A DNA stretch of 593 nucleotides from NCBI RefSeq assembly GCF_003334255.1, contig NZ_QOWU01000218.1; one strand, 5' to 3'. A program made the translations under genes and the position numbers. Shown here piece by piece: positions 1 to 593 of this stretch; positions within the stretch are counted from its first letter, which is position 1, and the number at the start of each line of letters is the position of its first letter. The notes below the pieces were generated by a model. That model did not search any database and was not told the origin of the DNA. It saw only the letters and a list, made by a program, of their open reading frames with translations. This stretch comes from Escherichia coli (GTDB lineage: Bacteria > Pseudomonadota > Gammaproteobacteria > Enterobacterales > Enterobacteriaceae).

Positions 1-4
1 GCAT
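1..4 (-). CDS. Rz1: Start of embedded Rz1-type outer-membrane lipoprotein spanin (o-spanin); only the ATG at 4..2 and one further base are inside the window
   Basis: ATG at 4..2 on the minus strand is in the +1 frame of Rz, 220 nt downstream of the Rz ATG and inside the Rz codons for ELADA. This is the same offset and motif at which lambda Rz1 initiates. A GAGGG ribosome-binding site lies 9 nt upstream (18..14), and the +1 frame has a TAG stop at 10..8 immediately before it. The lipoprotein signal and lipobox cannot be seen because they lie beyond the window. Confidence 0.5.
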
Positions 5-224: not shown

Positions 225-231
225 CTCTCTT

Positions 232-363
232 TCACCCCACCAGTCCCGATAACGTCAGGACTCGCCAGGCGGTGGAAAAGAAAATGGCAACCAGCATTAG
301 TGAAAATGAAATGCCGACAATTACACAGAGGATCTTCGCCAGCGTTATGAGTTTGTCTGACAT
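232..363 (-). CDS. Hypothetical 43-aa small membrane protein (one predicted transmembrane helix), translationally coupled to Rz
   Basis: ATG at 363..361 is preceded by AAGGGAGG (378..371) with a 7-nt spacer. Translation is [43 protein letters not shown], then TGA at 234..232, which is 7 nt before the Rz ATG. A hydrophobic stretch of about 22 residues ([24 protein letters not shown]) fits a single membrane helix. The track's longer version (start 453) begins with GTG directly after a stop, has a Gly/Cys-rich N-terminus and lacks a ribosome-binding site. Confidence 0.5.
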
Positions 364-370
364 GCTTAAT

Positions 371-378
371 CCTCCCTT
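371..378 (-). promoter_or_regulatory. Shine-Dalgarno ribosome-binding site (AAGGGAGG) for the 43-aa ORF; overlaps the TGA stop of the upstream ORF
   Basis: Plus-strand cctccctt at 371..378 is AAGGGAGG on the minus strand, a near-perfect complement to the 16S rRNA 3' end, 7 nt upstream of ATG 363..361. Confidence 0.6.
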
Positions 379-560
379 CACGATTTCAACGCAATGACCA
401 GTTTTGCCAGCCCATACAGCATCGGGGACACAGCAACACCGACCGCCACCCACTTAATGGCAAAAGCCAGTGCTCTGCTGATGTCATCAGTTACAGGCGC
501 TTTCAGTTCAAGGCCATTTTTCATAGTCAACCTCAACAGAATTCGTTTATACTTTTCCAT
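378..560 (-). CDS. Hypothetical small tail-anchored membrane protein (60 aa if ATG 560; 48 aa if ATG 524); 5' end unresolved because the frame is open to the window end at 593
   Basis: Frame translates MEKYKRILLRLTMKNGLELKAPVTDDISRALAFAIKWVAVGVAVSPMLYGLAKLVIALKS, then TGA at 380..378. ATG at 560..558 is preceded by AGGGAG (569..564, short 3-nt spacer); the alternative ATG at 524..522 is preceded by GAGG (534..531, 6-nt spacer). The N-terminal part is charged (K/R/E/D) and the C-terminal 25-30 residues are hydrophobic. The stop abuts the ribosome-binding site of the next ORF. Confidence 0.45.
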   Translation of the reverse strand: MEKYKRILLRLTMKNGLELKAPVTDDISRALAFAIKWVAVGVAVSPMLYGLAKLVIALKS

Positions 561-593
561 GTTCTCCCTTGCCTTATCCAAGGTCAGAAACAC

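Follow-up and report, generated by a model that had tools for sequence, protein, structure and literature searches.

Predicted small membrane proteins encoded between the endolysin and Rz genes of a phage-21-type lysis cassette in Escherichia coli

Lysis cassettes of the type found in phage 21, DLP12 and Qin contain a class II holin gene (S) followed by the gene for a lysozyme-fold endolysin (R) with a signal-anchor-release (SAR)-like N-terminus, and an Rz gene with Rz1 embedded in it. Both this cassette type and insertions at the R/Rz junction are already known, the latter from annotation, as with the ant gene of the Shiga toxin (Stx) phage 933W; in 933W and in the Sakai prophages Sp9, Sp10 and Sp12 the order is S - R - ant - Rz/Rz1. 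In phage P2 a non-essential membrane-protein gene, lysA, lies between the endolysin gene K and the spanin genes lysB and lysC and affects lysis timing. The releasin gp25 (DUF2730) of phage Mu, a membrane protein other than a holin, modulates the release of a SAR endolysin whose gene lies a few genes upstream of its own; it consists of an N-terminal transmembrane domain and an acidic cytoplasmic domain of ~70 amino acids (aa; PMC9239132). Here we describe a stretch of 593 nucleotides (nt) from E. coli (contig NZ_QOWU01000218.1 of assembly GCF_003334255.1), referred to as the window, in which two small open reading frames (ORFs), ORF1 and ORF2, lie in series upstream of Rz. The ORF pair adds to the accessory genes known from within the late operons and lysis cassettes of lambdoid phages.

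To judge from its sequence matches, the window almost certainly comes from within an intact lysis cassette of the phage 21 type, in a lambdoid E. coli phage or prophage. It is 100% identical to segments of Escherichia phage PhiR12_3 (PV340552.1, 29476-30068), phage PhiR12_4 and three E. coli chromosomes (G1/2, G6/7 and G8), and sixteen further chromosomes match it at at least 99% identity. Using one identical context as a reference (locus L001, in which 6001-6593 is equivalent to the window), the elements are, in order, class II (pin)holin S, SAR endolysin R, a terminator-like hairpin, ORF1, ORF2 and Rz with Rz1 embedded; all coding features within the window are on its minus strand (Table 1). 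The holin is annotated as class II and matches phrog_20 and phrog_9876, both 'holin' in the PHROG profile collection, and the lysozyme matches phrog_7, 'endolysin'. The closest solved structures to the lysozyme are 3HDE/3HDF (deposited as 'Lysozyme'), which we take to be the phage 21 SAR endolysin R21, and 4ZPU (RrrD), with E values of ~1e-18 to 5e-19. Its N-terminus, MSRKLHYGLSVAVLALIATGASAP, is basic and then weakly hydrophobic (Kyte-Doolittle score 1.78) in the manner of SAR sequences, and we predict that it is a SAR endolysin that is released from the membrane. The Rz protein matches phrog_13, 'Rz-like spanin' (E=1.5e-75), and is annotated as endopeptidase Rz or lysis protein in the matching records; Rz1 is a 61-aa lipoprotein with the lipobox VSAC and matches phrog_3198, also 'Rz-like spanin' (E=1.7e-31). 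All three features of a phage-21-type cassette are thus present, namely a class II holin gene before the endolysin gene, a SAR-like endolysin of lysozyme fold, and Rz with an embedded Rz1. The locus shares with the phage 21, DLP12 and Qin cassettes the phrog_20 holin, the similarity of the endolysin to 3HDE/3HDF and RrrD, the SAR-like N-terminus, the embedded Rz1 and the gene order, but whereas R overlaps Rz directly in Qin, here R and Rz are separated by 492 nt that contain the hairpin and the two small membrane ORFs.

A preliminary description of the window had concluded that no endolysin gene lies upstream of Rz and that the two small ORFs stand in its place. It was right that positions 225-593 hold no endolysin-sized ORF (the longest on both strands are 73 and 71 codons), but the wider conclusion fails: the endolysin position is filled as normal, the small ORFs lie between the endolysin gene and Rz, and the absence of an endolysin from the window is an artefact of its edge, because the lysozyme gene ends a short way past position 593 (Table 1). 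A spanin module without an endolysin therefore has no significance here. Extension of the sequence, which the same description had proposed as a check, was achieved through the identical contexts and yielded both a lysozyme gene and a canonical class II holin gene upstream. We regard two of the explanations that it had offered, a muralytic enzyme encoded elsewhere or a decayed prophage like Rac that retains only its spanin genes, as having next to no chance of being correct. Only the 593-nt window itself, with no endolysin-sized ORF, speaks for them, whereas every identical or related context has the holin and SAR-type lysozyme genes directly upstream, as do 78 of the 94 loci compared (in the order R > ORF1 > ORF2 (> Rz); 80 of the 94 loci are IMG/VR matches picked for similarity to ORF1, so that this count is biased towards that order). 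The sequence also forms part of complete phage genomes, PhiR12_3 among them, and the close relatives are intact, with PhiR12_1, PhiR12_2, PhiR12_4, PhiR12_5 and PhiR5_2 being complete phage genome deposits that share this arrangement, with K-12 or E. coli C named as host. Its third suggestion, an insertion of small membrane proteins at the border between modules, fits what was found.

Table 1. Features of the window and of the surrounding cassette in the reference locus L001.
Feature	Window position	Strand	L001 position	Remarks
Class II holin, 71 aa			5124-5339	directly upstream of the lysozyme gene
Lysozyme, 177 aa			5344-5877	stop 123 nt beyond window position 593
Lysozyme-ORF1 spacer, 156 nt			between 5877 and 6034	carries the hairpin
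Terminator-like stem-loop			5968-6000	just outside the window
T-rich tail of hairpin, GTGTTTCTGA	584-593	-		
Predicted antisense RNA, ~78 nt	start near 559-561, past 593	+	region 5958-6070	would end at the hairpin
Predicted sigma-70-like promoter antisense to ORF1	524-553	+		-35 TAGTCA 524-529; 18-nt spacer; -10 TATACT 548-553
ORF1, 60 or 48 aa	378-560	-	6034-6216	ATG 560 or internal ATG 524; TGA 380-378
ORF2, 43-aa single-pass membrane protein (predicted)	232-363	-	6231-6362	ATG 363-361; TGA 234-232
Rz (i-spanin), 5' part, 74 codons	1-224	-	6370-6837	ATG 224-222; runs off the left edge of the window; full gene 155 aa
Rz1 (embedded o-spanin), first bases	1-4	-	6590-6775	ATG 4-2 (L001 6590), just clipped by the window edge; +1 frame of Rz; nearly all outside the window

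Comparative evidence marks both ORF1 and ORF2 as authentic accessory genes that have been conserved, each predicted to encode a tiny single-pass inner-membrane protein. We consider them to be real genes because their in-frame ratios of nonsynonymous to synonymous substitution rates (dN/dS) are well below 1, because they have homologues down to 63% identity, and because their products belong to PHROG families. The homologues form 121 protein clusters for ORF1 and 106 for ORF2, all named 'hypothetical protein', which are 63-100% identical and mostly keep the length and the membrane segment; both sets include E. coli, and ORF1 homologues occur additionally in E. marmotae and Salmonella. By the Nei-Gojobori method on codon-aligned DNA, in-frame dN/dS is 0.04-0.30 for ORF1, with E. 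coli and Salmonella differing by a ratio of ~0.1 at dS 1.0-2.6, and 0.05-0.60 for ORF2, apart from one near-identical pair at 1.54 that reflects 5 differences. The two alternative frames mostly give values of 0.5-11 at appreciable divergence, with lower ones in a few closely related pairs. The ORF1 protein matches phrog_1115, phrog_4493 and phrog_3246, and ORF2 matches phrog_4906 (E=2.5e-27); all are families of unknown function and none is in the lysis category. Profile searches, which had been suggested for the small proteins, gave nothing among the Pfam, NCBIfam and PADLOC models. A deep profile search with ORF1 against 1.84 billion representatives recovered 19 clusters at 50% identity, which indicates a narrow, enterobacterial family.

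It is very unlikely that the ORFs are only translated spacers that deliver ribosomes to Rz, or decaying fragments, with no function for the peptides themselves. Their shortness, the variable C-terminal third of ORF2, the single ORF2 pair with a high ratio, and the existence of chimeric and truncated copies (the fusion P0094 and a 40-aa ORF1' at locus L082) would fit such an origin, but it is opposed by purifying selection across E. coli and Salmonella at dS >1, by 17 invariant columns in the ORF1 alignment, and by the retention of length and membrane segment even in the most diverged homologues. The earlier preference for expressed genes over a deletion scar is likewise favoured by the purifying selection and the PHROG families. 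Of the two observations that had been named as jointly telling against that description, an endolysin gene directly upstream has been found, whereas the reading frames, far from being untranslated and unconserved fragments, are conserved.

Translation of ORF1 could begin at either of two in-frame ATG codons, which are 12 codons apart and have a Shine-Dalgarno (SD) site each. The 60-aa form begins at ATG 560, 4 nt downstream of AAGGGAG at 570-564, and the 48-aa form at ATG 524, which is preceded by GAGG at 534-531. ATG 524 is almost invariant and the internal MKNG start is conserved in at least 90% of relatives, and the basic extension (x)YKRILLRLT is kept in most of them but not all; ORF1 may thus be a two-isoform gene with a dual start. 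The SD site of ORF2, AAGGGAGG at 379-372, is overlapped by the ORF1 stop codon, and 7 nt (AAGAGAG) separate the ORF2 stop from the Rz ATG. The preliminary description was correct in its coordinates and in what it said of the two ORFs, including the 7-nt gap and the single membrane segment of each protein. Kyte-Doolittle analysis finds one hydrophobic segment per ORF, strong in ORF2 (2.87 for the best 19-residue window) and weaker in ORF1 (1.88), where it is C-terminal and rich in Gly, Ala and Ser. An AlphaFold2 model of ORF1 (mean predicted local distance difference test score, pLDDT, 78) has a short basic helix at residues 3-15 and a long helix at 22-59, giving a predicted architecture of a basic N-terminal helix followed by a long, weakly hydrophobic C-terminal membrane helix. 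A match to DUF3930 (E=0.22) was disregarded, and derivation of ORF2 from a duplicated Rz membrane helix was rejected, as BLASTP gave no alignment. Apparent homology between ORF1 and ORF2 in a profile-profile comparison (98% probability) is an artefact of a chimeric sequence, P0094, in alignment A1. P0094 is an 83-aa protein in which the ORF2 N-terminus is fused to the ORF1 C-terminus, and a similar chimeric frame is present at L007 2771-3043; these chimeras point to recombination within the small-ORF array.

Of 5,426 complete E. coli genomes, 1,004, among them O157:H7, contain the R-to-Rz spacer and both its ORFs at a coverage of at least 80%. ORF2, in nearly every case 7 nt before Rz, was found in 276 phage records, mostly of Stx-converting phages, and in 255 records it and the 5' part of Rz are matched as one collinear piece of DNA. 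In the Stx phages 933W and Sakai Sp9, Sp10 and Sp12 the junction resembles that of the window in carrying accessory DNA with an ORF2 homologue immediately before Rz, the ORF2 and Rz block being ~95% identical at the DNA level, but ant takes the place of ORF1 and the hairpin associated with ORF1 is missing. The 933W homologue, of 44-49 aa, is encoded in the unannotated gap between ant and Rz (AF125520, ~27420-27569 of the record; L102 2921-3070), and many other Stx phage records similarly have no annotation beneath the ORF2 match; the Sakai homologues are ECs_1966, ECs_5722 and ECs_5732.

The junction as a whole is occupied by an array of 2-4 small membrane ORFs packed between R and Rz, the content of which varies among prophages. 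At L007 it consists of ORF2, a truncated ORF1 and a 28-aa ORF, smallD, followed by Rz (2578-2790, 3055-3141), smallD being a paralogue of the ORF1 helix (phrog_4493), and at L082 there are four small ORFs in series (2426-2646 region), including the truncated ORF1'. The sole junction ORF at L009 is a 45-aa membrane ORF, smallC (2659-2797; phrog_6632), which is unannotated and ends in IRWW, and Stx phages have ant and ORF2. ORF1 is found downstream of four types of endolysin gene, and usually just before Rz. The first is the SAR lysozyme; the second is a GH108 endolysin, in a cassette with two other holins, and the third a GH19 endolysin accompanied by a holin of the lambda S type. In the fourth context, where Rz does not follow, a further PF00959 lysozyme has a Phage_holin_2_3 holin as its neighbour; ORF1 also occurs after ant. 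The R/Rz junction is therefore host to a variable array of ORF1, ORF2, smallC, smallD and sometimes ant in many lambdoid phages of E. coli and Salmonella, including most Stx phages.

Other accessory genes were observed in and around these cassettes. At L008 (1178-3361) two holin-like genes and a GH108 endolysin gene precede the ORF1-ORF2 pair, and a 65-aa lipobox protein (phrog_7528) and a 69-aa protein (phrog_3909) are encoded in the place of Rz, with no recognisable spanin nearby. Many relatives have a YdfR/DUF1327 gene between the holin and endolysin genes (L006 1572-1916; L004 1515-2024), so that the cassette has a further site for accessory genes at its S/R junction. Upstream of the cassette, PhiR12_3 (L001 1-1812) and the E. 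coli G1/2 prophage (L002 1-1816) contain restriction-modification-like genes, for an HsdM-family or BcgI-like methyltransferase plus an S subunit, in the accessory region proximal to the late promoter; a DUF6645 / CP-933V-like gene follows them.

The hairpin between the endolysin stop and ORF1 is GC-rich and terminator-like, with T-tracts on both sides (bidirectional), and accompanies ORF1 in every context examined, that is, after SAR lysozyme, GH108, GH19, ant and tail-fibre genes and in two metagenomic contigs. Changes in its stem are compensatory (ACCCCG/CGGGGT, CGCCCG/CGGGCG, GCCCCG/CGGGGC) and the loops differ. A consensus scan gives one sigma-70-like match on the plus strand, within ORF1 and pointing at the hairpin, and a promoter-like site is found at the homologous position in all six of the diverged ORF1 loci scanned, its hexamers varying yet remaining promoter-like (TATAAT at L098; TTGGCC with a 16-nt spacer at L013). 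The predicted RNA would cover the ORF1 SD site and the long-form start, and folds into two stem-loops (z = -3.1). Among codons for identical amino acids, synonymous differences are seen in 36 of 172 (21%) for the 15 codons that overlap the site and in 204 of 378 (54%) for the rest of ORF1, in pairs that are not independent. No sense promoter-like site was found between the hairpin and the ORFs by consensus scan. At the smallC locus L009 there is no antisense promoter at the homologous place, the only match lying ~130 nt further in, and Rfam has no family for the RNA; its only hit, to 'rimP leader', is below threshold (27.5 bits, where the gathering score is 47) and corresponds to the terminator hairpin.

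These elements recall type I toxin-antitoxin systems (hok/sok, ibs/sib, symE/symR), in that a short antisense RNA, predicted to have its own promoter and a Rho-independent terminator, would overlap the 5' end of a gene for a small hydrophobic peptide. ORF1 might thus be the toxic peptide of such a system, or of an antisense-controlled module like it, with the ~78-nt RNA masking the ribosome-binding site until late transcription overwhelms it. We consider this quite improbable. The homologous sites, the covarying hairpin with two-sided T-tracts that travels with ORF1, the suppressed synonymous change, the two hairpins of the predicted RNA, and the small size and hydrophobicity of ORF1 are all in line with it. 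However, the promoter match is only 9-10 of 12 positions, and chance alone would yield about one match of this quality per region; the six loci are homologous and hence not independent; and the low synonymous rate may equally derive from the internal SD site and ATG of a dual start, from constraint on the 5' mRNA, or from recent recombination. A promoter for the peptide mRNA, as type I systems have, was not found by the scan, the ORF1 module sits inside a phage late operon, and the antisense RNA is a prediction only; the lack of an Rfam family also tells against a module of this kind. Published Hfq-CRAC (cross-linking and analysis of cDNA) data show no peak between R and Rz in any of the four Sakai prophages that were inspected (Sp4 included), a weak negative as all four lack ORF1. 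We therefore treat the putative antisense promoter and hairpin as a lead.

Several described small RNAs (sRNAs) were considered as counterparts of the predicted RNA and rejected. AgvB (which it resembles in being CA-rich), AsxR and EcOnc03 have published sequences that differ from it, and these three, like the Pas sRNAs, are encoded on the upstream side of the holin gene. EcOnc10, EcOnc11 and EcOnc12 have their peaks ~75-365 nt beyond the Rz stop. EcOnc11 and EcOnc12 (Sakai Sp10 and Sp9, respectively) are ~75 nt past the Rz stop and EcOnc10 (Sp12) ~350 nt past it and partly in ECs_2255, all three being antisense to the late operon; the coordinates of EcOnc11, EcOnc12 and EcOnc10 on NC_002695.2 are 1946819-1946867, 1779522-1779569 and 2234239-2234287, outside the span homologous to the window.

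The best overall explanation of the locus, an intact cassette with accessory membrane proteins that tune lysis, has in our judgement about an even chance of being correct, and the tuning role of ORF1 and ORF2, taken on its own and predicted from sequence, is put forward tentatively. Under this explanation the ORFs would be transcribed only within the Q-antiterminated late operon, by read-through from pR', late-operon-only transcription being inferred from the lack of a detectable sense promoter after the hairpin; ORF2 is placed for translational coupling to Rz. The proteins would insert in the inner membrane late in infection, beside the pinholin, the SAR endolysin and the i-spanin, and would affect how soon or how efficiently the pinholin is triggered, the SAR endolysin is released or the spanins act. 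In favour of a link with lysis are the occurrence of ORF1 after four kinds of endolysin gene, mostly just ahead of Rz, and the packing of small membrane ORFs between R and Rz. The Mu releasin shows that a SAR-endolysin cassette can include an accessory membrane protein, but ORF1 and ORF2 are only 43-60 aa long, neither matches DUF2730 or any other Pfam family, and their own cassette already has a holin. P2 LysA is larger than either protein and has several membrane helices; no sequence relationship to ORF1 or ORF2 was detected.

A number of observations weigh against lysis tuning. The K-12 Qin prophage has a working cassette in which R abuts Rz and both ORFs are lacking, and lambda presumably has the same direct arrangement of R and Rz without small ORFs. 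Since the ORFs are missing from functional cassettes they are dispensable, and they would modulate lysis without being core components of it. Searches of PHROG, Pfam and NCBIfam place neither ORF in a holin, antiholin or releasin family. Holins typically have a highly charged C-terminal tail, and the C-terminal flanks here carry no such tail (ALKS, net charge +1, in ORF1; net +1 in ORF2). Literature searches by accession, locus tag, phage name and topic turned up no study of ORF1 or ORF2; because Qin is without them, the K-12 small-protein literature does not cover them either. The linkage of ORF2 to Rz could be that of one inherited recombination block. Finally, diverged relatives of ORF1 are found downstream of tail-fibre or tail-assembly genes with no lysis gene nearby, and these fit a generic late moron as well as a lysis factor.

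The ORFs may instead be morons with a role other than lysis, such as superinfection exclusion, a block of receptor or injection, or anti-defence, at a junction that merely tolerates insertions; we see this as possible, though on balance unlikely. The tail-side relatives are suggestive in this respect, as exclusion genes are often near tail or receptor-binding genes, and the highly variable content of the junction, its sharing with the unrelated ant gene in Stx phages and the many working cassettes without the ORFs point the same way. The ORFs also constitute extra DNA between genes that are adjacent in related phages, R overlapping Rz in Qin, as do morons in the sense of Juhala et al. 2000. 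Such morons further have their own promoter upstream and terminator downstream, but here the hairpin is upstream of ORF1 and ORF2 runs into Rz (weak evidence, from a consensus scan only). With no sense promoter and a terminator-like hairpin directly upstream, expression in a lysogen looks unlikely; the nearly invariant position of ORF2 before Rz and the absence of any PADLOC match also count against a moron of this sort.

Lysis tuning by ORF1 and ORF2 can be extended to a more general proposal, that the 28-60-aa single-pass peptides ORF1, ORF2, smallC and smallD form an exchangeable array and a new class of lysis regulators that times the pinholin, SAR endolysin or spanin, with ORF1 gated by the cis-antisense RNA; we regard this as improbable. 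Irrespective of function, two families of tiny membrane proteins under purifying selection are present within the lysis cassettes of about one-fifth of complete E. coli genomes and of most Stx-converting phages, where they are often unannotated, as in 933W, or else named 'hypothetical protein'; both are grouped in PHROGs. If they have no part in lysis, they are late-operon morons of some other function. The timing of lysis controls phage burst size and, in Shiga toxin-producing E. coli, the release of toxin, and either lysis tuning or antisense regulation of ORF1, if true, would extend a textbook system by a further level of control. If the peptides do form a regulator class, they would affect burst timing, and hence Shiga toxin release, in hundreds of pathogenic E. 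coli prophages.

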